Source of the DNA: a virus
Taxonomy: Duplodnaviria; Heunggongvirae; Uroviricota; Caudoviricetes
DNA length: 15,670 nucleotides
Strand: one strand, 5' to 3'
Virus record (IMG/VR): IMGVR_UViG_2778261161_000003
Coordinates: 1 to 15,670 of that record
This document shows, piece by piece, positions 1 to 15,670 of the stretch. Position 1 is the first letter of the stretch, and each line of letters starts with the position of its first letter. The notes beneath the pieces are model-generated. The model saw nothing but the letters and a program-made list of their open reading frames with translations. It made no database searches and was not told the origin of the DNA. The translations under genes were made by a program, and so were the position numbers.

Positions 1-174
1 ATGGGATTGCTGAACAGGAACGATGTTGAAGTTGAGCTGCATCTTTGCATCAGGGATGATGAACCCAAGACTGCAAAGGTGAAATTACGAAGTCTTAAGG
101 ATATTGATGCGTGTGAGCGTCTGATTGATAAACTTGCTGCAGTGGTCGTAACTCCAAAACAGGATAGCGGGTAA
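1..174 (+). CDS. Hypothetical 57-aa ORF starting at the window edge; may be the 3' end of a longer gene
   Basis: ATG at 1 with in-frame TAA at 172-174, followed by a hairpin plus T-tract at 219-247. No family recognised. Not in the ORF track (under 60 aa). Confidence 0.3.
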   Translation: MGLLNRNDVEVELHLCIRDDEPKTAKVKLRSLKDIDACERLIDKLAAVVVTPKQDSG

Positions 175-218
175 ATAGCACAGCGGTTGTTTTGCATTGT
201 GGTTGCACCAAAAGAAAA

Positions 219-247
219 CCCGCAGGTTTTATGCTGCGGGTTTTTTT
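219..247. terminator. Bidirectional intrinsic terminator
   Basis: Stem CCCGCAG (219-225) / CTGCGGG (234-240) with 8-nt loop, then T7 (241-247) on the plus strand; an A-rich run upstream gives a T-tract on the minus strand too. Placed to end both the plus-strand ORF 1-174 and the minus-strand hok transcript. Confidence 0.6.
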
Positions 248-329
248 GTTGCGTTCATGTCTGGAATGGGTGCGTTTCGACCGCCTTTCGCAACCGAATG
301 ACGGGGGATTGCTCCCCCGTCGCGGTTTC

Positions 330-470
330 TTACTGTTTACACTGCAAGAACGCCGCAAACTCCGCTCCCCAAAAGCTCATCCGGATTTCGCAGAGTGACC
401 CCTGCAGCATCCAGATGATGAGGATTGCCGTCACGCATAGGGTGATGGCGGTTAGCGATTTTTGCGACAT
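330..470 (-). CDS. Hok/Gef-family type I toxin, 46 aa
   Basis: Minus-strand translation MSQKSLTAITLCVTAILIIWMLQGSLCEIRMSFWGAEFAAFLQCKQ. One N-terminal hydrophobic helix, conserved SLCEIR motif and C-terminal E-x-AAFL-x-C tail, as in Hok/Gef/RelF toxins. Strong SD GGAGG (revcomp of 479-483) 8 nt upstream of ATG (470-468); stop TAA at 332-330. Confidence 0.8.
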   Translation of the reverse strand: MSQKSLTAITLCVTAILIIWMLQGSLCEIRMSFWGAEFAAFLQCKQ

Positions 471-655
471 AGCGCTTGCCTCCTTAGTGGAGAGGCGCTA
501 ACCTTCTACTTGCTAAGGTATGAAGTGTTAGGGCCTCGGGTTAACGTTACGTTGACTCGGGGCCTTCTCACATCTGGCCTTCGGGAAATCCTCCAACCAT
601 CAGTCGAAGGCACCCGCGCGTAATTTACCGTCTTTTGTTTATTCCGGCAATTCTG
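471..655 (-). promoter_or_regulatory. hok mRNA leader and promoter region; expected location of a cis-antisense Sok-like RNA on the plus strand
   Basis: Minus-strand sigma70-like promoter: -35 TTGCCG (650-645), 17-bp spacer, -10 TAAATT (627-622). This gives a transcript of about 400 nt ending at the 219-247 terminator, the usual hok mRNA size. The antisense RNA itself could not be delimited by eye. No intact mok-like overlapping ORF with a start codon upstream of hok was found. Confidence 0.35.
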
Positions 656-659
656 GCCA

Positions 660-920
660 TCAGTTCCGGGGGAGGGGTAGGTTCATCTGACTGCAACCTC
701 TGTGCGAAGCTGGCAGGTCATGCCAGGGGATGCCCTCCGAAGAGTGAACGCCAGAGGCGTGTTTCGATGTGAATTTATGGAAAGCTTCCAGTGTTGAGAA
801 GCATACGCCGCATTCCAGGTTGTTACACTGGTAATATTTTTGCCGCACGGTATTCGAATCATTTTCCGGGCGACTGGTGCGGATACGGGCAGATGCGCCA
901 CAAAGCGGACAACGGAACAT
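660..920 (-). CDS. ogr: Ogr/Delta-family zinc-finger late-gene transcription activator
   Basis: MFRCPLCGASARIRTSR...QCNNLECGVCF matches the P2 Ogr C-x2-C...C-x4-C zinc-finger layout and N-terminal MFxCPLC signature. SD GGGAGG 5 nt upstream of ATG (920-918). The ORF is 86 aa against 72 aa for P2 Ogr. Confidence 0.85.
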   Translation of the reverse strand: MFRCPLCGASARIRTSRPENDSNTVRQKYYQCNNLECGVCFSTLEAFHKFTSKHASGVHSSEGIPWHDLPASHRGCSQMNLPLPRN

Positions 921-1164
921 AGCGACCTCCCTTTGCGTGGTGCTGCCGCTATTTTAAGTTGTACTAGCTCAGACTCCAACCGACAGTTTGCGTAGCCAGA
1001 ACGCAATCAAACCTGGCAATCCGCTTTGAACTCGCAGCGACAAGCGTGCGTTCTCACATAAATGAAGATTATTGGCTTTTTACCATATGTGGGAGTGGTG
1101 CTTTTGTTAGTAAAAGGTGATGATAGGTTTTTTCCTATGCACACCCATTGGTTAGTCAAGAGAA

Positions 1165-3132
1165 ATGACAGAATTTGAGATAAATAGCCCACTACTTCAT
1201 CTCGCTTTGCTTGAAACACTGAAGCGTGACGACATTCATGATGAGATAGATTTGTTTCTTCCGTTTATTGCTGTAACAGCCTCCGAAATTGGCAAGCCTG
1301 TTATTAATGAAAATGATATACAGGATAAACTTCAGCAAAACTTCGGGTTCAAGCCGCCACTGGCAGCAGTGAAGGTATTGATGACGCGAGCCAAGAAAAG
1401 AGGCCTTCTAATCCGTGAAAATTTCGCCTTTATTCCAGTGCACGAAAAAATAACTGAATGGAAAAATGGATTTGAGCATAAAAAAGAAGATGTAGAAACA
1501 TCTCTTGCAAGTCTCAAGCGTGAATTTATCATTTTTACAGAAGTCAACTTTGGTAAAAAACTATCTGATTCTGAAGCTGAAAAGTTAATTATCGGATTTA
1601 TTGAGGTTAACGTTAGTAGTGTGATAAGTCATAGGGCTTATCATCGAATGGAACAAGCAGAACGTATTAAAAATACTAATCATGTTATTGCATCTTTTAT
1701 TAGTCATATTCACCGAAACCAACCAAGAATTTTAGAAGATTTCAGTCGATGTGTAAAAGGTATGTTACTGGCTAACTATCTCTTTTATGCAGATAAGGCC
1801 ACAGATAAAAAATCTTATAAGGGAATAACAGTTTACCTTGACTCTCCTATAGTCATTGGCATGCTTGGATATAGTGGACGCCAAGCAAAAGAGGCATATA
1901 CAGATTTTTTAAATCTTCTAAAATCACTAAGTATTGAGATAGTCATATTTGACCGTACACTTAATGAAATTGAAGGTTTACTATATGCATGGAAAAATGA
2001 TATTTCGAAGAAACGTTATGACCGTTTCAATACGAAGACACTTGAGTGGTTAAGGGCGCAAGGTTATGATGCTGAGCGTATTGATACTGACCTTAAGCTA
2101 CTTGAAAGTAATATCAATAAGCTTGATATCAATATTAAACTTGGTTTTACTCCGAAAACAAAGTTTCAATGCGATGAAGCTAAACTCCAGAGTGCTATTG
2201 GTCGGGCTTTTCACAGAGACAAAAATCTTGAGCACGATACTATTTGCATTTCCCGCATACATAATATGCGGGAAGGTAGAGTGATCAATAATCTTAGCCA
2301 GTCTTTTAGTGTTTTTGTTACGCCTAATACTAGCCTCGTCAAGGAAGCTAATGATTTTTTCCGTCATGATACTAAGCGCCAAGCTATTCCAGTCGTCGTT
2401 TCTGAACAGTGGATGACGGCTATGTTCTGGCTAAAAAAGCCAGATATTTATGCTCAACTACCTCAAGAGCAGCTTCTTTCAACGGCCTACAGTTTATTGT
2501 ACACCGACGATCGATTCTGGGAAGCTTTCATAAATCGTCTCGAAAATCTTGAAAAACGAGGAGATATTACTCAGGATGAGTTTCTTCAGATCCGCTGGGA
2601 TAGTGATCTTCTTCGGCTTGTGCATGATGTATCTGTCGATGTGGGAGAGGATTTTTCCGAGGAAGATGTTTTTGACGTGGTTAACACAATCAAGCGAAGG
2701 CATGAGGAAAAACATCAGAGTGATATGGCAGAGCTAGAAGACCGTGGCCGACAGGAACTAGAGAGTTTGCGTCAAAAAACATCCACACAACTTCAGACGA
2801 TTAATCTGGAAAAACAAGCTGCGCAGGCAAGAATTGAATCTTTAGAGCGAAAAATACGCAAGGGTAGTGCCTTTCTAGCTGGCGCTTTAGCTTGGTTTTT
2901 TAGTGGATTGCTGGTCTTTTCTCTTTGTCTGGCTGCTGTCAAAGGAATTCCCGATGAAATGCAGCCCGCTATGTTTAGAAGTGACTTATTCAGAGGAAAT
3001 CTGGTAGGTGTTAGCATAATTGTTACTTCATTATTTGGAGTGCTCAGTAGTGTTACAGGAATTGATTTAGCCATTTGTCATAAATTCATAAAATCACGTA
3101 TTGAAAAATGGTTTTTTTCATTATTTAGTTGA
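1165..3132 (+). CDS. Hypothetical 655-aa protein: large soluble N-terminal region, coiled coil, two C-terminal transmembrane helices; AT-rich cargo gene
   Basis: Long uninterrupted ORF in a visibly AT-rich segment. Heptad-like charged region at about aa 520-570 (ELEDRGRQELESLRQ...IESLERKIRK), then hydrophobic helices AFLAGALAWFFSGLLVFSLCLAAV and LVGVSIIVTSLFGVLSSVTGIDLAI. No Walker A or other catalytic motif recognised. Start ATG 1165 has only a weak SD. Confidence 0.7.
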   Translation: MTEFEINSPLLHLALLETLKRDDIHDEIDLFLPFIAVTASEIGKPVINENDIQDKLQQNFGFKPPLAAVKVLMTRAKKRGLLIRENFAFIPVHEKITEWKNGFEHKKEDVETSLASLKREFIIFTEVNFGKKLSDSEAEKLIIGFIEVNVSSVISHRAYHRMEQAERIKNTNHVIASFISHIHRNQPRILEDFSRCVKGMLLANYLFYADKATDKKSYKGITVYLDSPIVIGMLGYSGRQAKEAYTDFLNLLKSLSIEIVIFDRTLNEIEGLLYAWKNDISKKRYDRFNTKTLEWLRAQGYDAERIDTDLKLLESNINKLDINIKLGFTPKTKFQCDEAKLQSAIGRAFHRDKNLEHDTICISRIHNMREGRVINNLSQSFSVFVTPNTSLVKEANDFFRHDTKRQAIPVVVSEQWMTAMFWLKKPDIYAQLPQEQLLSTAYSLLYTDDRFWEAFINRLENLEKRGDITQDEFLQIRWDSDLLRLVHDVSVDVGEDFSEEDVFDVVNTIKRRHEEKHQSDMAELEDRGRQELESLRQKTSTQLQTINLEKQAAQARIESLERKIRKGSAFLAGALAWFFSGLLVFSLCLAAVKGIPDEMQPAMFRSDLFRGNLVGVSIIVTSLFGVLSSVTGIDLAICHKFIKSRIEKWFFSLFS

Positions 3133-3144
3133 CTTTTACTAAAG

Positions 3145-3180
3145 GAGAAATGCGGTTAATAATTTTGAACCGCATTTCTC
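3145..3180. repeat. Perfect 13-bp inverted repeat forming a stem-loop just after the 655-aa ORF
   Basis: GAGAAATGCGGTT (3145-3157), 10-nt loop, AACCGCATTTCTC (3168-3180). No U-tract on either strand, so it is not a canonical intrinsic terminator. Confidence 0.45.
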
Positions 3181-3314
3181 TGGGCTGTTATCTGATATAA
3201 TTAGTATCCATATCTAGTACAGATGAGGCTGTTAGAAGTGTCAAAACAACCTACGGTGGATAGAATTGACTGTGTGTCCAACGTTGAGAGGGATAATGTA
3301 ATAAAGCATTATCA

Positions 3315-3680
3315 GTGCACAATAGACATCTAGGGGGAACCTTGGCTAAGGTGACCAGAATTCAGGCCGGGCAATATGCAGTAGATGATGGGCGTTTCAT
3401 CGTAAAAAATAGCTCAGGATGGCTCGTTGTTGATGTTAATGGCACCCATGATTTTGGGCCTGTTCCAACGCTAGCAGCAGCGAAACAATATGTTGAGTCT
3501 GGCGCGGTTCCGTTAGGGCAACATAATTTGTCTACAGTACATGGCCGCAGACAAAGCAAAAAAGAGTTTAATGCATATCTGGCATCTGAAGCTAAGAATG
3601 GTAATCCAATGCCAGCTATTCTTTGGATCATTGTTCTTTGTATCATCGGTGGTGTTGTCTTGGCTGTGAGAGGTTATTAG
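3315..3680 (+). CDS. Hypothetical small protein (about 109-121 aa) with a C-terminal transmembrane anchor
   Basis: ORF ends in hydrophobic segment AILWIIVLCIIGGVVLAVRGY. Start ambiguous: ATG 3315 or in-frame GTG 3351 downstream of AGGGGGAA. Same strand as the 655-aa gene. Confidence 0.45.
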   Translation: MHNRHLGGTLAKVTRIQAGQYAVDDGRFIVKNSSGWLVVDVNGTHDFGPVPTLAAAKQYVESGAVPLGQHNLSTVHGRRQSKKEFNAYLASEAKNGNPMPAILWIIVLCIIGGVVLAVRGY

Positions 3681-3830
3681 CTTTGGATAGATTAGCTGAT
3701 TTTCTACTCACGGATTGATGCGGATAGCTATTATCTATGTCCGCTTTCTAGCGCAGAGCGGATTGTCAGATTAGGTGGACCTGTGCCGTAAACGTGTCAG
3801 CTTTGGTCTGAGCTAATGCATCCAAGTTGT

Positions 3831-4940
3831 TCACTCTGTTTCTGCTATCCATTCAGGGATTTTTGTCTCAAGCTCAAGCCGCGTGGTAAACCCACTGTCA
3901 TCAATGGTGTGCTCGGCTTTTGCAATAATCCAGTTCTGTTTATCAATGTCGCTTTTGAATCCTGTCACCGTGCCATGCATTTCGGGGTAGAGTTCTGCGC
4001 GTCCACGCGCCAGCGTGATGGAAAAAGATGCGGCCCCGCGTTGTAGCTGCTGCCACTTTGCCGCCGCTGCGCGTCTTGCTGCCTGTTCATTCTGGTAGGT
4101 TTTGCGTAACACAAATACGTTGCCTTCCGCTCCTTCCATATAATCGCCTTCGCGGCTGCTGCTTTGCTCCTTTTTCGGTTTTGGCGGTTTGCGGCGTTTC
4201 ACGCTGACTTTTTTCTTTTTCCCGTAGTTAAGATCAAGCCAGTAGGCGCGTACACCCGTATACGCCTCGCGGTCAGCAATTCGGAACTGATGGCGATCGC
4301 CGCTGCTGCGTGTGATGGTGAACGATGGCAGCGGCTGGCCCTGTGCGTTCACGCCACCGCCTGGCATGATGAATAACAGATTTCCGCTTTTTACCGTGGT
4401 GATTGCGCCCAGCATTTCCGCCATGCGCGTAAGGAAGGACATGTCGCTTTCTTCGGTCTGGTCGGCGTGGTCGATTTCGATATCCATCAGCATTTCGCTG
4501 ATTTGTGGTTTCAGGCCGTACCGGTGAGCAATGGCAGACACCACGCGCTCAACGGTCACATCATGCCAGGACACTTCACGCTTAACGTTAAATTCATCCC
4601 GAAAATCTGCGCTTCTGGCTGAAACAGTCAGCGTGTCCGGTGGCCCTTCGTGAGCGATTTCATCAACAATGTAAGTGCCTTTTTCGGTCAGTGGTTCTCC
4701 TTTCCAGCCAATGAGAACCGTCAGGTGAGCGCCCCGTGGCGGTAGCTGCAACTGGCCATCGGCATCATCCAGCGTGATGGTTAGCTGGTCAGCTTCAAAT
4801 CCTCTGTTGTCGGTCAGCGACAGACTCATCAGGCGCTCTGCCACGCCGGACAGCGCTTTACCTTCCGCAAGAATATCAAAATCCGGCATTTTCACGGGGT
4901 CTGCGCGCTGACTGAGTAATTGCATGGTGGTATCGGTCAT
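3831..4940 (-). CDS. D: Phage tail protein D (P2 late control gene D family)
   Basis: Translation from MTDTTMQLLSQRADPVKMPDFDILAEGKALSG onward has the overall layout of P2 gpD-family tail proteins, including the lysine-rich linker KKKKVSVKRRKPPKPKK. Start chosen at ATG 4940-4938 because of SD GGGAGG 6 nt upstream; the track ORF extends to 5072 but that N-terminal extension lacks an SD. Confidence 0.85.
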   Translation of the reverse strand: MTDTTMQLLSQRADPVKMPDFDILAEGKALSGVAERLMSLSLTDNRGFEADQLTITLDDADGQLQLPPRGAHLTVLIGWKGEPLTEKGTYIVDEIAHEGPPDTLTVSARSADFRDEFNVKREVSWHDVTVERVVSAIAHRYGLKPQISEMLMDIEIDHADQTEESDMSFLTRMAEMLGAITTVKSGNLLFIMPGGGVNAQGQPLPSFTITRSSGDRHQFRIADREAYTGVRAYWLDLNYGKKKKVSVKRRKPPKPKKEQSSSREGDYMEGAEGNVFVLRKTYQNEQAARRAAAAKWQQLQRGAASFSITLARGRAELYPEMHGTVTGFKSDIDKQNWIIAKAEHTIDDSGFTTRLELETKIPEWIAETE

Positions 4941-5097
4941 CTGCTCCCTCCCTGCGTGGCATAGTCGCATGTGCGTGCGGCGGGGGTTACTGCTTTTTGT
5001 TGTCGTCGGGCGGGGAGAACAGCGCAAGAGTGAGATTGTGCGCGTGGTGGGTGATGATTGTTGCCGAATCATTTAACGGATACAAGGGGCTGAAGCT

Positions 5098-6282
5098 ATG
5101 AGTGAAACTCGTTTTCATGGTGCCCGTGTTACGGAAAGTACCGACCTGGTAACAGCGATTAATGACGTTGATTCCAGTGTTATTGGTATCGTGGCAACGG
5201 CGGATGATGCGGACGCAAAGCAGTTCCCGCTGAACAAGCCCACGTTGCTGACCCGCGTCAATGACGTGCTGGGAAAATGCGGGACTACGGGGACGCTTTA
5301 TCGTGCGCTTAAGGCCATCGCAGACCAGGTGAGCACAAAAGTGATCGTCGTTCGCGTGGCTGAACACAAAGAAGAAGACGGTAAGACGCAGGATCAACTG
5401 GTTATCGGTGGTTCTGAATCTGACGGCAGCTATACAGGGATGTATGCGCTGCTTGTTGCAGAGCAGGATGAAAGTATCGGATACCGTCCGCGTATTCTGG
5501 CTGCGCCGGAGCTGGACACGGAGGCGGTAACAAAATCCCTGTGCGTGATTGCAGGTAAACTGCGCGCGTTTGTGTATGCCTCATGTCACGGCTGTAACAC
5601 GATGGCTGAGGCGATTACCTACCGCCAGAAATTCAACGAACGTGAGGTGATGCTCTTATGGCCGGACTTCATCGCCTACAACCCGAAAAGTGGCAAAAAC
5701 GAAACGTTCCCCGCGCCTGCCTATGCGTGCGGCCTTCGTGCGTACATTGACCATGAGCAGGGCTGGCACAAATCACTGTCCAACGTTCCGGTTAAAAATG
5801 TGCTGGGGATGTCGAGGCATGTGTTCTGGTCGTTGCAGGCCGAAGACAGTGATGCCAACAGCCTCAACAACAAAGAAATCACGACCATTATTCGTCGCAA
5901 CGGGTTCCGCTTCTGGGGCAACCGCACACCGGAAACGAACGCCTACATCTTTGAGGTGTATACCCGAACCGCACAGGTGCTGGCTGATTCAATTGCGGAA
6001 GCGCAGTTTGAAACCATCGACAGTCCACTGACGCCTGCGAACGTGAAGGATGTTATCAGTGCCATCAGGGCAAAACTGGATTCACTGGTTACTGCCGGGA
6101 AACTGATTGGCGCGGAGTGCTGGTATGACGTGGTGGATAACAGCACCACGGATTTACGTCAGGGGCGTGTGCGTATTCGCTACAAATATACGCCTGTTCC
6201 GCCACTGGAAGACATGGAGCTTTACCAGACGTTTACTGATGAATACTTTGAACCTGCATTTGCGGTGCTGGGAGGTGCCTGA
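5098..6282 (+). CDS. FI: Contractile tail sheath protein (P2 FI-like)
   Basis: 394 aa, collinear with P2 FI (e.g. WPDF, EQGWHK.LSNV, RRNGFRFWGNRT, YKYTPVPPLE). SD AAGGGG 8 nt upstream of ATG 5098. Confidence 0.9.
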   Translation: MSETRFHGARVTESTDLVTAINDVDSSVIGIVATADDADAKQFPLNKPTLLTRVNDVLGKCGTTGTLYRALKAIADQVSTKVIVVRVAEHKEEDGKTQDQLVIGGSESDGSYTGMYALLVAEQDESIGYRPRILAAPELDTEAVTKSLCVIAGKLRAFVYASCHGCNTMAEAITYRQKFNEREVMLLWPDFIAYNPKSGKNETFPAPAYACGLRAYIDHEQGWHKSLSNVPVKNVLGMSRHVFWSLQAEDSDANSLNNKEITTIIRRNGFRFWGNRTPETNAYIFEVYTRTAQVLADSIAEAQFETIDSPLTPANVKDVISAIRAKLDSLVTAGKLIGAECWYDVVDNSTTDLRQGRVRIRYKYTPVPPLEDMELYQTFTDEYFEPAFAVLGGA

Positions 6283-6794
6283 TGGCTGTGCCAAAACATC
6301 TTCGCTTTTTCACGCTGTTTGTGGATGGTGAAAACGAAGTGGGGAAGGTGACGTCCGTCACTCTGCCTAAACTGACGCGTAAAATAGACAGCTATCGTGG
6401 TGGTGGCATGATGGGGGCGGTGAGTATCGATCTCGGTCTGGATGATTCGGCTCTTGATGCGAGCTTTGTCATGGGCGGCGCGGTTCGTGAACTGTTCCTT
6501 AAGTATGGCGGCACGATTGACGGCACGCTGCTGCGCTTTGCAGGTGAATACTACACCGATGCAGAAAGCGACCTGTATGAAGTCGAAATGCGCGGACGTG
6601 TGACGGAAATTGATATGGGGGAAGCCAAACAGGGCGAAGCCACATCACACACTTACGCCATTAAAAACACCTACTACAAGCTGAGTGTTAACGATCGCCC
6701 GTTGTGGGAGATTGACCTGCTGAACTTCATTTACCGGAAGGACGGCAAGGACATTGTGCCCGATCGCATCCGTTCCGCGCTCGGGCTTGGCTGA
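6282..6794 (+). CDS. FII: Tail tube protein (P2 FII-like)
   Basis: 170 aa; MAVPKHLRFFTLFVDGENEVGKVTSVTLPKLTRKIDSYRGGGM matches the P2 FII N-terminus pattern. ATG overlaps the FI stop (TGATG), SD GGGAGGTG upstream. Confidence 0.9.
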   Translation: MAVPKHLRFFTLFVDGENEVGKVTSVTLPKLTRKIDSYRGGGMMGAVSIDLGLDDSALDASFVMGGAVRELFLKYGGTIDGTLLRFAGEYYTDAESDLYEVEMRGRVTEIDMGEAKQGEATSHTYAIKNTYYKLSVNDRPLWEIDLLNFIYRKDGKDIVPDRIRSALGLG

Positions 6795-6849
6795 TAAGTA
6801 ATATGCAGGCGGCGCAGTGCGTTGCCTCTGACTGAAAAGGAGACAACTG

Positions 6850-7224
6850 ATGAAAGACATCGATACTGAAACCCGGAATAACACCGTAGCGGATGATGTG
6901 ACGGCAGGTGAGGATATGGCTGTCGAACGTGGTGTAAAACTTTCCCGGCCAATTGAGCGTGGTGCCGAAAAAATCACATATGTGGAAATCACCGGGGCTA
7001 TTGAGCAGGCGGGATCCCTGCGTGGTCTGTCGCTGTCTGATGTGCTGAATCTGAAAGCGGATACCATGTTCACGCTGTTGCCTCGCGTGACCTCGCCACG
7101 ACTGGATGAAGTGATGATTAAAAAAATGTCGTCACGCGATTTTATTCAGTTGTGCGCTGTGGCTGTAAATTTTATGAGCGAGCCAGACTCTGGCGCGAAG
7201 AGCGTGCAGGAGACGGCAGCGTAA
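6850..7224 (+). CDS. E: Tail assembly chaperone E (zero-frame product)
   Basis: 124-aa ORF between the tube and tape-measure genes, the conserved position of gpE in P2-like tails; SD AAAGGAGA upstream of ATG 6850. Confidence 0.8.
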   Translation: MKDIDTETRNNTVADDVTAGEDMAVERGVKLSRPIERGAEKITYVEITGAIEQAGSLRGLSLSDVLNLKADTMFTLLPRVTSPRLDEVMIKKMSSRDFIQLCAVAVNFMSEPDSGAKSVQETAA

Positions 7225-7388
7225 TCACCCTGGTGTGCTTTGAGCACATCGAAGATCTGGTGGCGGATATTGCCGCCATTTTTAACTGGTCGCCCGCCGA
7301 AATCTTCATGATGACGCCCGGCGAAGTGGTTAGCTGGCGTGAGCGGGCGGCACTTCGCAGCGGGAATGCAGACAATGAAGACTCTTGA
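6850..7388 (+). CDS. E': E+E' fusion predicted from a programmed -1 translational frameshift
   Basis: The -1 frame relative to E is open from 7122 to TGA 7386-7388, overlapping the 3' end of E and running up to the tape-measure start. Same logic as P2 E/E' and lambda G/GT. The exact shift site is inferred. Confidence 0.55.
7167..7173 (+). promoter_or_regulatory. Candidate -1 slippery heptamer A AAT TTT
   Basis: Fits X XXY YYZ in the E zero frame (codons AAT 7168-7170, TTT 7171-7173), inside the E/E' overlap. An A7 run at 7120-7126 is an alternative but re-pairs less well. Confidence 0.4.
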
Positions 7389-10182
7389 TATCCGGGTCGC
7401 TTTCAGCGCCGTTGACAGGCTGACCCGGCCTGCCGAAAACGCCCTCCGCCTGATGGGGCAGTTTGGTGACTCCATCCAGCGAACGCAGGGGGCGATCAAA
7501 AATCTCGAGCGTCAGGCGCGATCATTCGAGCGCGCCCGCGACGCTGTCAGTAAAGCGGATGCGGGCATCGTGAAAGCACGACGCCAGCTTAACGCCCTTA
7601 ATCAGTTACAACGCACGGGTACAGTGCTCAGCGAAAAACAACAAAAGCTGATGCAGCAGTTAAGCACCCGGCTTGAACGCCTGAATGAATCGCGCACACG
7701 GGAAATTCAGAAAATGCGGGAGCTTGGCGGAGAGCTGAAACGCCACGGCATTTCCCTGACAGGCAGCGATAACACCATCCAGCAGGCCATCAGACGCACC
7801 GAACAGTACAACAACCAGCTTGAACGCGAACGGCAGGCGCTTGCGCGTGTAACGCGGGCGCGTGAGCGGTATTCGCGCGCGCAGGAAACCGCGGGAAAAC
7901 TGAAAACAGGTGGTGCACTGGCAACAGGTGCGGCAGCGGCGGGCGGCTATGCTGCCGGGCGTTTTTTGCAGCCCGCGATTGGGTTCGGGAAAGAGATGTC
8001 CCGCGTTCAGGCTCTGACGCGAATCGACAAAAACAGCCCGCAGTTTAAGGCGCTGCGTGAGCAGACGTTAAAACTTGGCTCTGAAACGCAGTTCACTGCA
8101 GGCGATGCCGCCAGTGGGCAGGCATTTCTTGCAATGGCTGGCTTCACACCGCAGGCCATTCAGGCTGCGCTTCCCGGCGTGCTGAGCATGGCAACGGCTG
8201 GCGGTATGGATCTCGGCGAGACGGCGGATATTGGCTCAAATATCCTGACGCAGTTCGGCCTTTCTGCTGACCAGATGGACCGGGTCGGTGACACACTCAC
8301 CGCAGCGTTTACCCGTACCAACACTGACCTTCGCGCACTGGGCGAAACCATGAAATATGCAGGTCCGGTAGCGGGTAAGCTGGGAATATCGCTGGAGCAG
8401 GCCGCAGCGATGGCTGGCGTGTTGGCGAATATGGGTATCAGAGGGAGTGATGCTGGGACGGCAATGCGTGCCAGCCTGGCTCGTCTGGCATCACCGCCAA
8501 AGGCGGCAGCAGAGGCGCTGAAAGAGCTTGGTGTGGCTGTTTCTGACGCGAACGGCAAAATGCGCCCGATGGAGGATGTGCTGGCCGACCTTTATAAAGC
8601 CACCCGCAAATACGGGGAAGTTGACCGGGTATCGTTCTTTAAGGACATTGCCGGAGAAGAGGCTTTCACATCATTTATGGCCCTCGTTGATGCGGCAGGT
8701 GACGGCTCCCTGCCCAAACTGAGAAAAGAACTTGAAGGCGCGCGCGGTGAGGCTGAACGCACGGCAAAGGTTATGGCCAACAACCTTGACGGCGATCTGA
8801 AATCACTCAGCAGTGCATGGGAAGGGTTGCGCATCCGCATTGCAGATCTGATTGACGGTCCGCTGCGTTCTGTTACGCAGTGGCTCACGCGAGTGGTCTC
8901 AAAGGTGACGGCGCTGGCGCAGGCCCATCCCGCACTGACGCGCCAGCTACTGATAGCAGGCGGTGCGTTGCTGGCAATGACTGCAACGGTTGGCTCGTTG
9001 TCGCTGGCTATTGGTGTGCTTGCTGGCCCGCTGGCAAAACTGCGTCTTGGTTTTTCTCTCCTGACCGGATCAATGAATGCTGTCAGGGTCCTGCCAGCAC
9101 TATGGGGAATGGTGACGGGTTCCGTTTCTTTACTGGGAGGCGCTATCGGGGCGTTGTTCAGTCCGGTTGGTCTTATCGTGGCTGCGCTTGCCGGAGCTGC
9201 CGTTCTTATCTGGAAATACTGGGATCCCATCAGGGCATTTTTTGCCGGGGTGTTCAGCGGGATTATGGAAAGGCTGACCCCGTTGCGCGAAACCTTTGAA
9301 CGGTTTGGTCCTGTTTTTGACGCAATCGGAAGCGGGATCAGCCAGGTGTTTAACTGGTTTAAATCGCTGCTGTCACCGATGGAGTCCAGCAAGGAAACGC
9401 TGGATAAATGTACCAGTGCTGGCGAGATATTCGGTAACGTTCTTGGCGGTGCGTTACAACTTGTTCTGACACCTGCAAAAATGCTACTGGATACGCTGGC
9501 GTGGATACTTGAAAAACTTGGCGTCCTTCCGGATGAAGCGGAAAGGGCGCGCAAGAAAATCGAAGACGCACAGCGTGCGGCCATTCTTCAGGACAAGGTT
9601 GCCTTGCTTCAGGGGGACCTGGCGAAAATCAATCCGCCGAAGCCTGTGGAAAATGGCAATGGCACCGGAGGTGATAAACCCAAAGACAACAAACCGCTCA
9701 CAGACAGCAATACCGGGACGCTACGCAGACTCAGCAAAATTGCTGATAACACAGGTAAGCTGGTTGATGAGACGAAAAAACGCATTGGCCCCGGCGATAT
9801 TGTCTTTAAGAACCTGCCCCGAGCACTTGCTGTTCGTGGGGAGTGGCAGGAGCGGAAGATTGCGCAGGTCAGTAAGCCTGCCCCCGCAATTAATATCACA
9901 CCTGTGGTTCCGGCTCCGCTGCCTCCGGCGCTGGTCCCTGTTGTTGCGGCCAGCTCCCGCCCGGTGGCAGAGGCCATACGATCGCCAGTGGCATCAGTTC
10001 CTGCAACTTCCCGTAACCGGGAGCCTGTTGCCTCCGGATTTGGCGGTGAAATTCATGTTCATCTGCATAACGTTGTTACGCAGAATCCCCGCGAACTGGC
10101 GAAACTGGTCGGTGAAATGGTCAGGGCAGAAATGGAACGGCGCGCCCGTGCCGGGCGTGGAAGTTTTTACGATAAAGATTGA
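7375..10182 (+). CDS. T: Tail tape measure protein (P2 gpT-like)
   Basis: About 935 aa, alpha-helical N-terminal region, Gly/Ala-rich hydrophobic central segment, Pro-rich C-terminal region; position after E/E'. Start set at ATG 7375 (GGGAA 8 nt upstream); in-frame alternatives at 7366 and 7339. Confidence 0.88.
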   Translation: MKTLDIRVAFSAVDRLTRPAENALRLMGQFGDSIQRTQGAIKNLERQARSFERARDAVSKADAGIVKARRQLNALNQLQRTGTVLSEKQQKLMQQLSTRLERLNESRTREIQKMRELGGELKRHGISLTGSDNTIQQAIRRTEQYNNQLERERQALARVTRARERYSRAQETAGKLKTGGALATGAAAAGGYAAGRFLQPAIGFGKEMSRVQALTRIDKNSPQFKALREQTLKLGSETQFTAGDAASGQAFLAMAGFTPQAIQAALPGVLSMATAGGMDLGETADIGSNILTQFGLSADQMDRVGDTLTAAFTRTNTDLRALGETMKYAGPVAGKLGISLEQAAAMAGVLANMGIRGSDAGTAMRASLARLASPPKAAAEALKELGVAVSDANGKMRPMEDVLADLYKATRKYGEVDRVSFFKDIAGEEAFTSFMALVDAAGDGSLPKLRKELEGARGEAERTAKVMANNLDGDLKSLSSAWEGLRIRIADLIDGPLRSVTQWLTRVVSKVTALAQAHPALTRQLLIAGGALLAMTATVGSLSLAIGVLAGPLAKLRLGFSLLTGSMNAVRVLPALWGMVTGSVSLLGGAIGALFSPVGLIVAALAGAAVLIWKYWDPIRAFFAGVFSGIMERLTPLRETFERFGPVFDAIGSGISQVFNWFKSLLSPMESSKETLDKCTSAGEIFGNVLGGALQLVLTPAKMLLDTLAWILEKLGVLPDEAERARKKIEDAQRAAILQDKVALLQGDLAKINPPKPVENGNGTGGDKPKDNKPLTDSNTGTLRRLSKIADNTGKLVDETKKRIGPGDIVFKNLPRALAVRGEWQERKIAQVSKPAPAINITPVVPAPLPPALVPVVAASSRPVAEAIRSPVASVPATSRNREPVASGFGGEIHVHLHNVVTQNPRELAKLVGEMVRAEMERRARAGRGSFYDKD

Positions 10183-10194
10183 GGAGTCATGGCC

Positions 10195-10683
10195 ATGATG
10201 ATGATCTACGGCATGTTTGTTTTTGAGCTGCGCACGCTGCCGCATCAGCAGTTACAGCAAAACAAAAGCTGGCGGCATGTGAAAAATGAACGCGTTAACC
10301 GTTCAGCAAGCTGGCAGTATATCGGTGCAGGTGATGATCGCATCGTGCTTTCTGGTGTGCTTTATCCTGAAATTACAGGTGGCGAAGTGTCGCTGTCGCT
10401 GCTGACCACGCAGGCGTATACAGGACGACCCTGGCCTTTGATTGATGGTGTCGGGCAGATTTACGGCATGTATGTCCTGACCGGAACGAATACGACCCGT
10501 TCCGAGTTTGATCGCTACGGTAAGGCGAAAAAGATAGAATTTTCACTGACCCTTGAACGCTGTGATGAGGATTTGCGGGAGCGCCTGCAATCCTCATCGT
10601 TCAGCGATATGCTGTCCGGCTTCAAAGATAAGGTGACATCATCTCTTAACAGCGCGGCCAGTTCAGTTAAAGGACTGTTCTGA
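10195..10683 (+). CDS. U: Tail protein U (P2 gpU-like)
   Basis: MAMMMIYGMFVFELRTLPHQQLQ, GAGDDRIVLSGVLYPEITGG and WPLIDGVGQIYGMYVLTG resemble P2 gpU. SD GAGGAG (10181-10186) is 8 nt before ATG 10195; ATG 10189 is an in-frame alternative. Confidence 0.88.
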   Translation: MMMIYGMFVFELRTLPHQQLQQNKSWRHVKNERVNRSASWQYIGAGDDRIVLSGVLYPEITGGEVSLSLLTTQAYTGRPWPLIDGVGQIYGMYVLTGTNTTRSEFDRYGKAKKIEFSLTLERCDEDLRERLQSSSFSDMLSGFKDKVTSSLNSAASSVKGLF

Positions 10684-10692
10684 TTTTACATT

Positions 10693-10737
10693 GCCGCCAA
10701 TACCCTCATATTGGGTAATGGGCGGCTTGTTGTTATA
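10693..10737. terminator. Stem-loop between convergent U and glycosyltransferase genes; probable bidirectional terminator
   Basis: GCCGCCAATACCC / GGGTAATGGGCGGC imperfect hairpin (10693-10726) followed by a T-rich run TTGTTGTTATAT. Confidence 0.5.
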
Positions 10738-10779
10738 TAATATATCGTAGGTCCTGATAAAACTGTTGAGGTTTCTACT

Positions 10780-12018
10780 TTATAAAGAATTGCTACTTTC
10801 TAATTCTGGGTTTCTGGAACTATTTTTACAACCTAAATCCGAGTGGTAATTCGGTATATCGTTTGTCAAATCTTGTTTGATAGCATTAATTAAGATCATT
10901 ATGTCGAATTTATGCATATCGTCGCCCCCTTCAGACCTTAGATGTTCGGATGTGGTGAGTTGAGTCGCTAATTTGCTGTTTGGCCCCCACACAATATTAT
11001 TTTCGAATTTTCCTTCATGCATTCTGTTATTATATATACAGTATTGTCTAATGTTTAATGCACTGGCTAAATGTACAATGGCAGTATCTACAGTTATAAC
11101 AAAATCAGCATGGCGAACCAATGCAAATGAACATCCGGCATCAGAAAATGGAGATAGAGACACATTATCCAATCCATTGTGATTAATCTGTTTTCCCATA
11201 TTAAAAACTATTGTGTGATATCCCTTAAGGTTATTAAGGTAAGCTAGTACTTTTTTTATCTGTTCATCAGATAAGGTTCTGCTATTCTGAGAGCCATAAG
11301 GGTTAAATATAACTAATTTTTTGTTTTTTTTTCTGAATTCATTTGCAACAATATTTGCTGGTTCATATATTTTGTTGTCAAAATTAAGCGCTGCAGCATA
11401 ATTATTATTTTTTATCTTTAGTAAAGATAAAACTTTTTTCATTCTTTCAGATGTGTGAATGGAACGATTATCGATTATATTTGTATCAAAAATAGTTACG
11501 GCAGGATGATTAAAACAGATAGAGTGTTTAGGTCTAAGTAAATGTAGTGTTTGCAATCTGGTTATCGCTGTGTTATCAAAATTTGAGAAGTCAACAACAA
11601 GATCTACATTCAGTTTTTTTATCTTTGCTTTTAGTTCGTTAAATTTATTTTTCTCGTAAGATATAAAGGCATCCACGCCAACAATGTCAGTAAAGAGGAA
11701 TGATACTCTTGAAGGTGCTATCACATATACCACCATACCGGATTTTTGAAGTTGTTTAATAAACCCTGAGGTAACGATGCCGTCACCAATGGCTTGCATG
11801 TGCATGAAAATGCACACTGTTTTATAACTATCCGGCTGTAATGATGTTTTCCTTCTGTATCGCATTTTTAGAAATGCCAGTCTGGCCTTCGTCTTTATCT
11901 TTTTTGTTTTAATATTTCGCTGTCTGTTAAGCTGTTTTAACGATGAAATAACATTCATAATGGTACCCTGAAATTCCAAATCACACATGTCATCCGTAAT
12001 GAGCAGGGTACTATACAA
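10780..12018 (-). CDS. GT-B-fold glycosyltransferase, family 9 (heptosyltransferase-like) with N- and C-terminal extensions; AT-rich cargo gene
   Basis: N-terminal KTVCIFMHMQAIGDGIVTSGFIKQL resembles the GT9 motif (ILIIRLSSLGDV type). C-terminal FALVRHADFVITVDTAIVHLASALNIRQYCIY resembles the GT9 nucleotide-sugar-binding motif (GNDSG.MHLAAAL type). Start uncertain: TTG 12018, ATG 11988 or ATG 11958, all with weak SD. Confidence 0.65.
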   Translation of the reverse strand: MYSTLLITDDMCDLEFQGTIMNVISSLKQLNRQRNIKTKKIKTKARLAFLKMRYRRKTSLQPDSYKTVCIFMHMQAIGDGIVTSGFIKQLQKSGMVVYVIAPSRVSFLFTDIVGVDAFISYEKNKFNELKAKIKKLNVDLVVDFSNFDNTAITRLQTLHLLRPKHSICFNHPAVTIFDTNIIDNRSIHTSERMKKVLSLLKIKNNNYAAALNFDNKIYEPANIVANEFRKKNKKLVIFNPYGSQNSRTLSDEQIKKVLAYLNNLKGYHTIVFNMGKQINHNGLDNVSLSPFSDAGCSFALVRHADFVITVDTAIVHLASALNIRQYCIYNNRMHEGKFENNIVWGPNSKLATQLTTSEHLRSEGGDDMHKFDIMILINAIKQDLTNDIPNYHSDLGCKNSSRNPELESSNSL

Positions 12019-12052
12019 AAAACTGGACTACAATGGTTTGAAATGAAAGCCT

Positions 12053-12652
12053 TTATGCTTGTTTACTCCTTGATTCCACTGGGGAAGCTGGCCACTCAAT
12101 ATCCGGTGCTCTTGATGTATCAACACGGTTCAGCAGCACTCGATACTTCTTCCATGCCACCAGTAACGATGTTTCTTCCTCTGTTGCAATATTCAAATCT
12201 ACGGCATCTTGAAGTGGCGAAATATGCTCACTGGCTACCTGCATGAGGCTGTTTTTTGTTTCTTCCGCCTCCCGTATCCGGAACACTTTTTCTGCTTCCG
12301 TATCCTTCACCCAGGCTATGCCGTTCCACTTCTGATATTCCCCTTCCGGCGACAACCAGGTGACATTTTCCGGTAACGGACCGAGTTCAGAAATAAATAA
12401 CGCGTCGCCGGAAGCCACGTCATAAACCGTTTTACCACGATGATCTTCAACGAGATGCCAGGACGCCCCATCACTGTTGAAAACAGCCACGAAGCCAGCT
12501 GGAATATCTGGCGGAGCAATATCAGTACTATTTGCAGGCAGACCTGTATGAGGTGGAATGTATGCATCACCTTCACCAATAAATTCATTGGTTCCGACCA
12601 GCAGATTATAAATTTTTATGGTCCGTGATTGTTCACTCATTCTGAATGTCAT
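12053..12652 (-). CDS. tfa: Tail fibre assembly chaperone (lambda Tfa / P2 gpG family)
   Basis: [51 protein letters not shown] and C-terminal [36 protein letters not shown] match lambdoid Tfa proteins closely. Start ATG overlaps the fibre stop (TAATG). Confidence 0.9.
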
Positions 12653-13734
12653 TATGCAAGCCTCACAATATAGTTAAATGCGATGTTTTTTACGGTGTTT
12701 TCTGCGTTCCCCGTAGCATTAACGGTGATGGTGTGTCCGTGGGGACCAATAATGACAGAATGGGCATGAGCACCAATGCCGATAGTGTGGTTATGGGCAC
12801 CGATATATACATTGTGAGCATGCCCTCCTGCGCTCGACGTGGTACCAGTACCTAACGCAGCGTTATAACCGGCTGATACACCATTCCCCGCGCCAGTGTG
12901 ACCAACAGGTATATTGTGTGAATGAGCTCCTGCGCTATTTGTGGTTTTTGTGCCGTAATCAAATGAACTGGTCGTTTTAGTACCGTAATCAAACGACGAT
13001 GTGGTTTTCGTCCCCAAATCAGTACTGGATGCGCTGGCGCTGTGGGTGTGCGATTTAATGCCGTCCTGTTCCTGAGACAATACGGCACGACCACTGGCAG
13101 GTTTGCCCTTGATAGTCCAGCCACGCATATCAGGGATCACGCCTGACGGATAAGCGACTGCAAGTTTCGGGTATGCAGATTTGTCAAAAGTCTGCCCCTG
13201 CATCAGGGCATAACCAGACGGAACGGTATCTGATGGCCACGGAATCGGTGCACCGACTGGATAAAACTCTTCAGGAGGATGAGCCGAGGTGTAAAGCTGC
13301 GCCCACGGCGACCAGTTTGCGTCGGTCGTATCCCGTCGTGAACGAATAAATGCCGGAGCATGAGCACCGCTTATACCACTCCAGCCGATGAGTAATTCGC
13401 CTTCGCCAACGGCTGTCATCCCTTTCAGGTGAATGATATTTCCATACGCTGTTGGATATCCGTTGTTATACGCCTCGTATAACTCCAGACCTGTGGCCCC
13501 CTGCATATTATCTGTCAGGGCGGTCAGCCGACCTTTTGAAGCCAGATTAACTGACGATACTGCTGTCCCATCTGACGGTAACGCCCCGATCTCTGATGCT
13601 GTTGGCTTATTCCTGGAGTTATAGTCCCTTCGCCAGCCAGGAGCATAAGCATCACCATGATTAATATAAGTAAATTGAGCATTAGGGATGCCTTCACCGC
13701 TGGATGTACTCGGTGTGGTAATGCGTATGGTCAT
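12652..13734 (-). CDS. Short tail fibre protein (360 aa) with tail-collar-like region and His-rich C-terminal tip
   Basis: [34 protein letters not shown]...IPDMRGW resembles the phage tail-collar domain. Followed by [10 protein letters not shown] tandem repeats and GAHxH/GHxH repeats typical of fibre tips. Much shorter than P2 gpH (669 aa). Confidence 0.8.
12936..13025 (-). repeat. Intragenic tandem repeat, about 3 x 30 bp, in the tail fibre gene
   Basis: CCGTAATCAAA recurs at 12953-12963 and 12983-12993 with a degenerate third copy at about 13012-13022; encodes [10 protein letters not shown] / [10 protein letters not shown] / [10 protein letters not shown]. Confidence 0.6.
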
Positions 13735-13835
13735 TGCGCCGCGGGTGCCAATAACCCATGCTCATCGCGGTAGGGATAGAACGCTGCTAAACGCTCAAAG
13801 TCTGCCTGTTCGTGTGTGTTCAGGACTTTTGCCAT
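13731..13835 (-). CDS. 34-aa ORF translationally coupled to the tail fibre gene; possible remnant of an early (cox-position) gene
   Basis: [34 protein letters not shown]; its TGA overlaps the fibre ATG (ATGA at 13734-13731). Sits where cox lies in P2, divergent from C. No convincing homology recognised. Confidence 0.3.
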
Positions 13836-13875
13836 GTGTGATAACCTGCGCTATCTGTGGTTGTTTGTGACTTGG

Positions 13876-13893
13876 TGTACTTATAAGTACACC
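13876..13893. promoter_or_regulatory. Operator candidate O1: perfect 18-bp palindrome GTGTACTTATAAGTACAC
   Basis: Perfect dyad in the short divergent region between the 34-aa ORF and C. Confidence 0.5.
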
Positions 13894-13908
13894 TTGTGCG
13901 CAAGCTTA

Positions 13909-13926
13909 GTGTACTTATAGGAACAC
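13909..13926. promoter_or_regulatory. Operator candidate O2: GTGTACTTATAGGAACAC (16/18 identical to O1)
   Basis: Second copy 33 bp centre-to-centre from O1, overlapping the C ribosome-binding site (AGGAA). Confidence 0.45.
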
Positions 13927-13931
13927 TGTCA

Positions 13932-14240
13932 ATGCTTATCGGTGAAAAAATTAGAGTGATTCGTGAATCAGAGGATTTAACGCGCGAAGAATTTTGCGGC
14001 CTGATTGATGTGCCTATCGGCACTTTGCGTCGTTATGAAACGGGGCGGATTGAAAACATAGGGGGCGAAGTGCTTATCAAGATTGTTAATCACCCTCGCT
14101 TTTTTAAGTACATGAATTGGCTTATGACGGGAAAAACAAATGAGGCTGCTGGGCAGATCAGTCCGTCTCTCTCCCCTGATGGGCCAAAAAGCACATCGCC
14201 TTCTCAAAAACCCCGCAAGACTGGCACACAGCCCGGCTAA
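13932..14240 (+). CDS. C: P2 C-type immunity repressor
   Basis: About 102 aa; N-terminal HTH (GEKIRVIRESEDLTREEFCGLIDVPIGTLRRYETG) and C-terminal FFKYMNWLMTGK...GQISPSL parallel P2 C (FTKYTLWFMTNQ...GQIAPAL). Start ATG 13932 with SD AGGAA 8 nt upstream; located immediately upstream of int. Confidence 0.85.
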   Translation: MLIGEKIRVIRESEDLTREEFCGLIDVPIGTLRRYETGRIENIGGEVLIKIVNHPRFFKYMNWLMTGKTNEAAGQISPSLSPDGPKSTSPSQKPRKTGTQPG

Positions 14241-14289
14241 TCATGGAGCGCTGGGGGCATGGTGGTCTTGTAACGCTGGGGTTTCACGA

Positions 14290-15264: not shown

Positions 15265-15274
15265 GGAGGATGTT

Positions 15275-15670
15275 GTGGAAAAAACAGTTAATAGCGATTT
15301 GCATTTAGGTCAGTACTGGAGAATAGACATTGTATGCGATCCAGAACTTCGAGATGAGGTTGAGCAATATTTTTCTCTACACGATGTTGGTTTTAGCAAA
15401 ATTGAAGTTTTTTCCGTCGAAAATCCATATAAACTTGCTCTGTTCTTTGATTTCGCGAAGAAGGGTGTGGAGGTTGCAAAAGCCATTATGGGACTCTTAG
15501 ACCGAAATGATATTGAAATAACGATGTATCGTGCTACGGACAGTAGCCCGCAGTCTGTAAAAAGCATCAAATTGCGTAAGTCTGAAGACGTAGAGAAATG
15601 TAAAGATTTGCTTAGTACGTGTGTTGCAATTGGCGTTCAACGAAATAAGGAAAAAGAGGGGAGTGAATGA
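15275..15670 (+). CDS. Hypothetical 131-aa protein, AT-rich; predicted GTG start directly after the int stop
   Basis: SD AAGGAGGA (15263-15270) overlapping the int stop, GTG at 15275 in frame with track ORF 15254-15670. No family recognised. Confidence 0.45.
   Translation: MEKTVNSDLHLGQYWRIDIVCDPELRDEVEQYFSLHDVGFSKIEVFSVENPYKLALFFDFAKKGVEVAKAIMGLLDRNDIEITMYRATDSSPQSVKSIKLRKSEDVEKCKDLLSTCVAIGVQRNKEKEGSE

Follow-up and report, generated by a model that had tools for sequence, protein, structure and literature searches.

Inverted FI-U tail block of P88-like phages in a prophage remnant, with a predicted bidirectional Ogr-dependent promoter between D and FI

Background

The late promoters of phage P2 follow the consensus TGT-N12-ACA (PMC3931495). 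In the P2 genome record, one activator site (3057-3087) is annotated for the two divergent promoters pP and pO, whose starts (3016 and 3127) are located 111 bp apart. In the 186 record the B-protein site is annotated as well, with the pJ start at 57–58 nt from the site centre, and the terminator tB is annotated as ending both the pB and the late transcripts. P2-order phages are covered by a study of Burkholderia P2-like phages (PMC3091744), while the papers describing P88 (PMC5285337) and SEN4/5 (PMC5261728) do not mention the gene order of these phages. An explicit description of the inverted order reported here was not found in the open-access literature searched.

Results and discussion

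The window, i.e., the whole stretch of 15,670 nucleotides that was analysed, is a deleted P88-like (Xuanwuvirus, Peduoviridae) prophage of E. coli, with ihfA on one side and btuC on the other. The genes were called with the help of a 99.9% identical locus carrying a PGAP annotation, as well as by matches to PHROGs and Pfam, and are given below.

330-470, minus strand: toxin gene of the hok/gef family, beside ihfA at the end of the prophage (PGAP; same gene in P88)
660-920, minus strand: ogr, intact, Ogr/Delta-like C4 zinc-finger late activator of 86 aa (PGAP)
961-3820, plus strand: low-GC cargo insertion of 2.86 kb (blastn against P88 and L007, both flanks of which abut there)
3831-4940, minus strand: D, late control D/tail hub, 369 aa (phrog_52, E = 3e-165; Pfam Phage_GPD PF05954)
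4941-5097: divergent D/FI intergenic region, 157 bp (sequence read directly)
5098-6282, plus strand: FI, tail sheath (phrog_23, E = 8e-128; Pfam sheath domains)
6282-6794, plus strand: FII, tail tube (Pfam Phage_tube PF04985, E = 3.7e-46)
6850-7224, plus strand: E, tail assembly chaperone (phrog_103, E = 3e-36, given for E and E' jointly; PGAP 'tail protein')
7233-7388, plus strand: E', frameshift extension of E, tail assembly chaperone (PGAP 'GpE family phage tail protein')
7375-10182, plus strand: T, tape measure (phrog_28, E = 4e-215; Pfam PF10145; start coordinate from PGAP)
10189/10195-10683, plus strand: U, last gene of the inverted block (Pfam Phage_P2_GpU PF06995, E = 1.5e-38; phrog_76, E = 8e-75)
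10684-10779: convergent gap between U and GT9 (homology to P88 stops at 10690)
10780-11958, minus strand: GT9, glycosyltransferase family 9 cargo (Pfam PF01075, E = 2.6e-6; phrog_36326; PGAP)
12053-12652, minus strand: tfa/G-like, tail fibre assembly (Pfam PF02413, E = 2.4e-44; phrog_105, E = 5e-99)
12652-13734, minus strand: tail fibre C-terminal cassette (phrog_295, positions 545-794 only)

The PHROG, Pfam and PGAP gene calls agree with the original prediction in placing FI to U on the plus strand and D, the fibre, tfa and ogr on the minus strand, with D diverging from FI across exactly 157 bp and U converging on the glycosyltransferase gene across the gap at 10684-10779. U and D are 5.2 kb apart on opposite strands and do not form a single co-directional FETUD operon. 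The claim that inverting FI-U gives the P2 order also holds on paper when the P2 record is taken for comparison. The gene that had been called a fibre does consist of tail fibre sequence on the minus strand, but it is a C-terminal cassette only: the N-terminal part of H is missing altogether, the ORF is not a full-length H gene, and its counterpart is labelled by PGAP as 'incomplete; missing N-terminus'.

The tail module (approximately 6.9 kb) has 92–96% nucleotide identity to P88, P884B11, Shae_phiSM, 520873, and PhiR44_2. Compared with P88 itself, the segments 3821-10690 (D through U) and 210-960 (ogr, hok) are 92–95% identical, with the same gene order, the same strands and the same 157-bp D/FI intergenic region. 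At the protein level, FI shows 99% amino acid identity to P88 FI, and D 93–96% to Xuanwuvirus D proteins. Unlike P88, the window lacks head, lysis, baseplate, and replication genes, carries the 2.86-kb insertion between D and ogr, and has the GT9 gene in the slot of the P88 DNA invertase. The PGAP annotation from ihfA to btuC lists only int, an HTH gene, the fibre cassette, tfa, FI-U, D, ogr, and hok, with no head, lysis, baseplate, or replication genes anywhere in the element. Judged by this gene content, the element is a remnant, not a complete viable phage genome, and virions cannot be made from it. A cognate C4 zinc-finger gene is present in the form of ogr, which matched NCBIfam PRK09678 (E = 1.9e-11, under the curated cutoff) and whose translation has four cysteines in the motif CX2C-X24-CX4C.

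The divergent D/FI order was found in P88, P884B11, phiT5282H, 3LV2017, SEN4/5, KSP20, and others, among them isolated phages of four ICTV genera (Xuanwuvirus P88, Novemvirus phiT5282H, Reginaelenavirus 3LV2017, and Senquatrovirus SEN5). Among the matches listed (D with at least 62% identity), D and FI were divergent and 150–250 bp apart in every phage record, a comparison that took in only the records with coordinates for FI as well as for D. Of 46 related genome loci, 43 retain FI; all of these, from approximately 25 genera of Enterobacterales, have U-T-E-FII-FI on the minus and D-ogr on the plus strand. The contiguous inverted-order junction was present in 1,109 of the 5,426 complete E. coli genomes. 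The inverted order, H/G -> <- U-T-E'-E-FII-FI | D -> ogr, is the fixed, inherited order of the P88-like clade, P2-related phages of Enterobacterales. The original prediction had allowed for it being unusual, recent, or artefactual and had named related complete phages with the same divergent D/FI arrangement as the evidence that would speak against this; P88, P884B11, phiT5282H, 3LV2017, SEN4/5, and KSP20 are such phages, and the 43 loci and 1,109 E. coli genomes share their order.

An element that departs from the textbook P2 FETUD operon and that is rearranged, with cargo insertions and a large deletion, could be suspected of having been misassembled, or of being a prophage of P2 order in which a single strain recently acquired an inversion. 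We consider this next to impossible, as the identical junction recurs in independently sequenced phage isolates, in the 1,109 complete E. coli genomes and in 43 loci of other genera, while the alternative junction occurs in no genome: a synthetic U-to-D junction was found in 0 of the 1,421 E. coli genomes with a match. Inverted repeats joining 4941-5097 and 10684-10779, which had been proposed as a check, were not found in the window, and none flank FI-U in P88. A programmed invertible segment, turned by a Hin/Gin/Cin-type invertase like the one encoded by P88 and caught in the window in one of two states, is brought to mind by the P88 DNA invertase gene, located directly beside U, and by the invertible fibre cassette of that phage. 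This is very unlikely as well: the P88 inverted repeats (23822-23886 / 26862-26926) bound the H/G cassette only, the window has neither an invertase gene nor inverted repeats flanking the block (4941-5097 vs. 10684-10779), a single orientation was seen in every genome examined, with the other absent from those 1,421 genomes, and the symmetric promoter geometry described below needs a fixed orientation.

A fused U+D query was contiguous in 386 of 520 phage records, very distant ones included, and split into two places in the inverted clade. Contiguity was seen in Peduovirus, 186, and phiCTX, in phages of Ralstonia, Burkholderia, Mannheimia, and Xanthomonas, and also in the E. coli myophages ECO1230-10/ECOO78 and a Microcystis phage. 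Simple neighbour-joining trees were built from 21 taxa for each of D, FI, FII, and U and carry no support values; in all four, every inverted genome fell in one clade, to which the P2-order Wadgaonvirus/Kapieceevirus pair was sister. As the U-D adjacency is widespread and the inverted genomes form one clade, these comparisons point to an inversion that arose once, long ago; by the same comparisons, the inverted order is ancestral for its own clade and derived within Peduoviridae overall. The inverted segment would run from the PF promoter through U, with one breakpoint at the U|D boundary and the other just upstream of the PF activator site. Inverted repeats behind an ancient inversion would not be expected to survive.

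Since D diverges from FI, it needs its own promoter, a step of the original prediction that stood up as reasoning and for which the D/FI region provides a conserved candidate, consisting of the following predicted elements.

5001-5018: Ogr-type activator site (predicted), 18 bp, minus-strand sequence TCTCCCCGCCCGACGACA, TCT-N12-ACA, centre at 5009.5
4961-4969, minus strand: extended -10 of the D promoter (predicted), TG-C-GACTAT, hexamer 4966-4961, TG 4969-4968, transcription start at approximately 4952-4954
5053-5058, plus strand: -10 of the FI promoter (predicted), GATGAT, transcription start at approximately 5065-5067

In an alignment of the window region with 41 other unique homologous regions, T(G/C)T-N12-ACA was located at the same position in 40 of the 42 unique D/FI intergenic sequences; in P88 the centre of the site is at 33263.5. 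The first triplet was TGT in 17, TCT in 23, and CCT in 2 of them, the TCT of the window being one mismatch from TGT. The site was found only by this relaxed pattern together with the cross-species alignment, as the exact TGT-N12-ACA had no match in the D/FI intergenic region and its three matches window-wide correspond to the chance level. The hexamers begin 43 nt from the site centre in 39/42 sequences on the D side and in 41/42 on the FI side, and the TG one base upstream of the D-side hexamer is invariant (42/42). The same site and 43-nt offsets are present at P/O of P88, phiT5282H, 3LV2017, and SEN5 and at the SEN5 V promoter; P88's own P/O site is also TCT, and the SEN5 genome has perfect palindromes of this form at P/O, V, and FI/D and nowhere else. 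Approximately eight chance matches to the loose motif are expected per genome; by itself it is not specific, and the case therefore rests on positional conservation. The consensus promoter scan gave no sigma-70 site in 3600-5300 and no -35 was recognisable, as for activator dependence; generic sigma-70 and terminator scans of both junctions yielded nothing useful beyond this missing -35/-10 promoter.

One shared activator site between FI and D probably drives transcription in both directions. The 157-bp region would then be a late promoter built like P2 PP/PO, symmetric, bidirectional and dependent on Ogr, in which each of the two divergent starts lies approximately 56 bp downstream of the single 18-bp site, reading FI-FII-E-T-U to the right and D to the left, plus ogr in intact relatives, where it lies approximately 45 bp downstream of D. 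We propose that the inverted layout works because the D/FI region is such a promoter. In the window, co-transcription of D and ogr, if it occurs in relatives, would be disrupted by the 2.86-kb insertion between them, and since the element is a remnant without virion production, this host may make no use of the promoter.

The site could instead serve the FI operon only, like P2 PF, with D transcribed from an activator-independent promoter or by read-through and the conservation on the D side due to something else, e.g., signals for translation or a structural (CG)n element. Several observations fit such a one-sided site: the -10 hexamers on the D side are weak and variable (GACTAT, AATCAT, GATCCT), the D start is a predicted one, the generic sigma-70 scan of the region was empty, and the loose motif is common by chance. 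What also weighs against the bidirectional promoter is that the -10 hexamers of the window are weak on both sides (GATGAT for FI, GACTAT for D) and that the predicted D leader has only approximately 13 nt. Nevertheless, the D-side hexamer is placed at the same 43-nt offset as the one on the FI side and that on the pP side of P/O, the extended -10 TG is invariant in all 42 sequences while the stretch from TG to the Shine-Dalgarno varies, and P2 itself has one site for two divergent late promoters. The gene upstream of D is on the opposite strand, so a transcript reading through into D would need to cross 5.6 kb of tail genes in antisense. We regard a site serving FI only as improbable and retain the bidirectional promoter.

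The tail genes of the window are homologous to those of P2 FETUD/PF and 186 J/pJ (42–54% amino acid identity), and the D/FI site, which in the window is one mismatch from the TGT-N12-ACA of those phages, resembles P2 PF and 186 pJ in its distance of 78–88 nt from centre to FI ATG and in its -10 at +43. In P2 and 186, however, U is followed on its own strand by D and ogr/B, and upstream of the site there is the terminator of the V operon, whereas in the inverted layout D and ogr have been separated from U and would be transcribed divergently from the one site. At PF of P2-order outgroups, the site and the rightward -10 are shared, but the leftward side has a terminator, so the D-side half of the promoter would be a feature of the inverted clade alone. 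With hexamers at +43 on either side, the predicted starts of the window come to approximately +56, which agrees with the annotations of P2 and 186. The likeness to P2 PP/PO extends to the position of one dyad site in the middle between two late units that diverge, to the distance between starts (111 bp in P2 vs. a predicted 111–115 bp in the window) and to a one-sided GC-rich spacer, located on the P side in P2 and on the D side in the window. The flanking genes differ, being P and O there and D and FI here, and the P2 promoters are experimentally mapped according to the record annotation, while those of the window are predicted from conservation alone.

Taken jointly, a remnant of the P88 lineage with the fixed order of its clade, a single inversion and a bidirectional Ogr-dependent promoter between D and FI is a model that we hold with high confidence. 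We lean, with more reserve, towards the further step in which one ancient inversion of PF-FI...U would have turned the one-way PF into a second symmetric promoter of the PP/PO style and split off D-ogr as a short Ogr-controlled operon; a description of such a rewiring of PF was not found in the open-access papers searched. If true, D-ogr would be placed directly under Ogr, giving a tighter positive feedback on the late activator, and the rewiring would span at least four ICTV genera and approximately 25 host genera. A bidirectional D/FI promoter would extend the known PP/PO principle and introduce no new one. The conserved geometry of the palindromic activator site suggests how a phage may survive an inversion that splits an operon, as only a new -10 on the other side would be needed. 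The order that looks odd beside P2 is standard in a phage lineage that about a fifth of the complete E. coli genomes carry, which removes a false lead. As a clean synapomorphy, the inversion also sets Xuanwuvirus, Novemvirus, Reginaelenavirus, Senquatrovirus, and the prophages related to them apart from genera with the P2 order.

Both cargo regions have a low GC content. The insertion at 961-3820 (GC 33–43%) lies between the D stop codon and ogr, is bounded by the 7-bp direct repeat AAGTTGT and contains ORFs of 655 aa (1165-3132) and 110–121 aa (3315/3351-3680); the 655-aa and 121-aa proteins had no family match in Pfam, PHROGs, PADLOC, or NCBIfam. The GT9 gene (GC approximately 30–35%) occupies a position similar to the P2 Z/fun slot, where variable low-GC cargo is found between the fibre-assembly gene and the FI-U block, the occupants being GT9 in the window, an invertase in P88 and fun(Z) in P2. 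In contrast to P2, the cargo of the window abuts U and not PF/FI, because the FI-U block is inverted.

Gene order of the window

The original prediction named the genes of the window, placed a 157-bp gap between D and FI and held that inverting FI to U restores the P2 order. All of its gene calls were borne out by the ORF listing and profile searches, the gap spans exactly 4941–5097, and the geometric statement is correct.

Genes of the window
330–470, minus strand: hok
660–920, minus strand: ogr
3831–4940, minus strand: D
5098–6282, plus strand: FI
6282–6794, plus strand: FII
6850–7388, plus strand: E/E'
7375–10182, plus strand: T
10189–10683, plus strand: U
10780–11958, minus strand: family-9 glycosyltransferase (GT9)
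12053–12652, minus strand: tail-fibre assembly gene (tfa)
12652–13734, minus strand: fibre fragment, C-terminal cassette only

Distribution of the divergent D/FI order

In megablast searches against phage records, the stretch from D through U matched phage P88 and further members of Xuanwuvirus at 92–96% identity. The complete P88 genome carries H and G on one strand, followed by an invertible fibre cassette and a DNA invertase, then U-T-E'-E-FII-FI on the strand opposite to H/G, and D back on the H/G strand, 157 bp from FI; reference phage genomes already display the divergent order. A divergent pair was found by tblastn (D and FI) in every listed phage record with D at least 62% identical and FI coordinates returned, among them Xuanwuvirus (seven E. 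coli or Citrobacter phages), Novemvirus phiT5282H, Reginaelenavirus 3LV2017, Senquatrovirus SEN4/SEN5, Klebsiella ST16-OXA48phi5.4 and the Kp48xx series, and Serratia KSP20. A D-protein scan that covered a single genome of each bacterial species yielded 46 loci from approximately 25 genera of Enterobacterales, and all of those retaining FI (43/43) carried U-T-E-FII-FI on the minus and D-ogr on the plus strand. The contiguous D|FI junction was present in 1,109 of 5,426 complete E. coli genomes. Of the 1,421 E. coli genomes that matched either half of a synthetic, "restored" U-to-D junction, none contained the junction itself.

Because the order recurs in all 43 loci and in 1,109 genomes and the restored junction in none, an assembly artefact, a recent or strain-specific inversion and a switchable segment are excluded, and the order, insofar as the original prediction took it to be unusual, turned out to be the norm for the lineage. 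Flipping of the FI-U block by an invertase is excluded as well, as the P88 inverted repeats bound the fibre cassette only, the window contains neither repeats nor an invertase, and FI-U had a single orientation in all genomes examined. No comment on the divergent order was found in the papers open to search.

Two Firmicutes-labelled assemblies (Vagococcus sp. WN89Y and the Planococcaceae MAG UBA3378) have contigs 95% protein-identical to this E. coli-type prophage, a label that likely reflects contamination or mis-binning.

Ancestral order

When U and D were fused into one protein query, it aligned contiguously, at a single place, in 386 of 520 phage records, among them Peduovirus, 186, phiCTX, phages of Ralstonia, Burkholderia, Mannheimia, Stenotrophomonas and Xanthomonas, a Microcystis phage, and E. 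coli myophages such as ECO1230-10/ECOO78. It was split into two places in sampled records with D at least 62% identical to that of the window; overall, places exceeded records by 50, a figure near the 48 records that fell within this range of D identity. In each neighbour-joining tree (D, FI, FII, and U), the inverted-block genomes formed one clade on a long branch, with Wadgaonvirus 500465-1 and Kapieceevirus ST11-VIM1phi8.4, both of P2 order, as its sister, and Yersinia YenM56.17, 186 and P2 further out. The contiguity of U and D in most records, together with this placement in simple trees and the outgroup comparison, suggests that U-D adjacency is ancestral and that the P88-type order was derived by a single inversion. 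The inversion event is old and fixed.

Predicted late promoter between FI and D

A TGT-N12-ACA site bound by Ogr is common to P2 late promoters (PMC3931495). The P2 record has a single annotated activator site (3057–3087) between the divergent pP and pO, whose start sites (3016 and 3127) are 111 bp apart. No exact TGT-N12-ACA match was present in window 4941–5097; a one-mismatch scan returned TCT-N12-ACA at 5001–5018, and an equally spaced TCT variant is present in the P88 P/O intergenic region. Alignment and measurement of 42 unique D/FI intergenic regions showed the 18-bp site as T(G/C)T-N12-ACA in 40 and in a CCT form in 2. On the FI side, a -10-like hexamer (GATGAT, 5053–5058 in the window) begins 43 nt away from the centre of the site in 41/42 regions, and on the D side one (GACTAT, minus strand, 4966–4961) begins at the same distance in 39/42. 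The D-side hexamer has, one base further upstream, a TG that is invariant in the aligned regions and marks a predicted extended -10; the TG is preceded by an alternating CG tract, and the sequence between the conserved blocks is freely variable.

The site and its 43-nt offsets also occur at P/O of P88, phiT5282H, 3LV2017, and SEN5, and at the SEN5 V promoter; in SEN5, the perfect palindromic form is confined to three places (P/O, V, and FI/D). The CG tract is a feature of the P, D, and V sides and is absent from the O and FI sides. It occupies the spacer that directly precedes the -10 (window 4970–4985; P88 14182–14192; related locus L006 9300–9312), and a GC-rich spacer resembling it is present at P2 pP. 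In the 186 record, where the B-protein site and the pJ start are annotated, the start is 57–58 nt from the site centre and the hexamer again at +43. By analogy, the window would have start sites at approximately 5065–5067 for FI and 4952–4954 for D, about 111–115 bp apart as compared with 111 bp at P2 PP/PO.

In the P2-order outgroups, the same site with a rightward -10 is found at PF, the FI-side promoter of P2, but the leftward side has a terminator in place of a promoter half, making the predicted D-side half specific to the inverted clade. That the site serves FI only, with D transcribed from an unrelated promoter, is improbable given the exact symmetry of the D and FI hexamer offsets and the invariant TG on the D side. 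The positional conservation throughout points instead to a symmetric bidirectional late promoter at FI/D, and the expectation that D needs its own promoter was right, with the conserved hexamer offset and TG as its predicted D-side half. The predicted reuse of the PP/PO-type solution at FI/D is the one modestly new point.

Expression of D and ogr

In relatives, ogr starts 39–54 bp past D, and a TAAAAT/TAGAAT/CATAAT element is conserved at or just past the D stop codon; in the 186 record, terminator tB is annotated as the end of both pB and late transcripts. Based on these three features, it is plausible that D and ogr form a short late operon, besides ogr's own promoter. In the window, D and ogr are separated by a 2.86-kb low-GC insertion (961–3820).

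A 13-bp palindrome, GGAGTTCAACTCC, is conserved in the D-ogr gap of most non-Xuanwuvirus clade members (L009–L050; e.g., L017 11108–11150), between the -10-like TAAAAT/TAGAAT and the ogr start, and may act on ogr as an operator, comparable to the CI sites at pB of 186. It is absent from Xuanwuvirus and from the window.

Prophage remnant and cargo genes

The stretch between ihfA and btuC in E. coli MEI7BO1-21, the closest genome, is 99.9% identical to the window. The element there is a prophage remnant and not a complete phage, its gene content being limited to an integrase, an HTH gene, the fibre cassette, tfa, GT9, FI-U, D, two cargo ORFs, ogr, and hok. Its btuC end carries the integrase and HTH gene and its ihfA end carries hok and ogr (window 1–15670; MEI7BO1-21 locus 15001–29710). 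The region from cox up to and including the N-terminal part of H has been lost, and MEI7BO1-21 lacks another 958 bp inside the fibre cassette (window 12794–13751). The cassette start (window 13618–13755) matches the silent H' cassette of P88 (26468–26605) in the orientation opposite to the remaining alignment, which fits a cassette fixed in the flipped state or a deletion end inside the former invertible segment.

The 2.86-kb insertion (33–43% GC) sits precisely between the stop codon of D and the -10 element of ogr, has the 7-bp direct repeat AAGTTGT on both sides, and carries its ORFs on the strand opposite to D and ogr. Its 655-aa and 110–121-aa proteins matched no family in Pfam, PHROG, PADLOC or NCBIfam. 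P88 and the related locus L007 have no insertion at this spot, and the Vagococcus and Planococcaceae assemblies have different ones (1.5 kb and 1.3 kb, respectively), which suggests that the D-ogr gap is a cargo (possibly defence) hotspot outside the classical P2 ones. The GT9 gene (heptosyltransferase-like, approximately 30–35% GC) lies between tfa and U, the slot of the DNA invertase in P88; in many of the E. coli genomes matching the window, a GT9 protein is annotated within the matched stretch, and the gene may serve in LPS-modifying lysogenic conversion.
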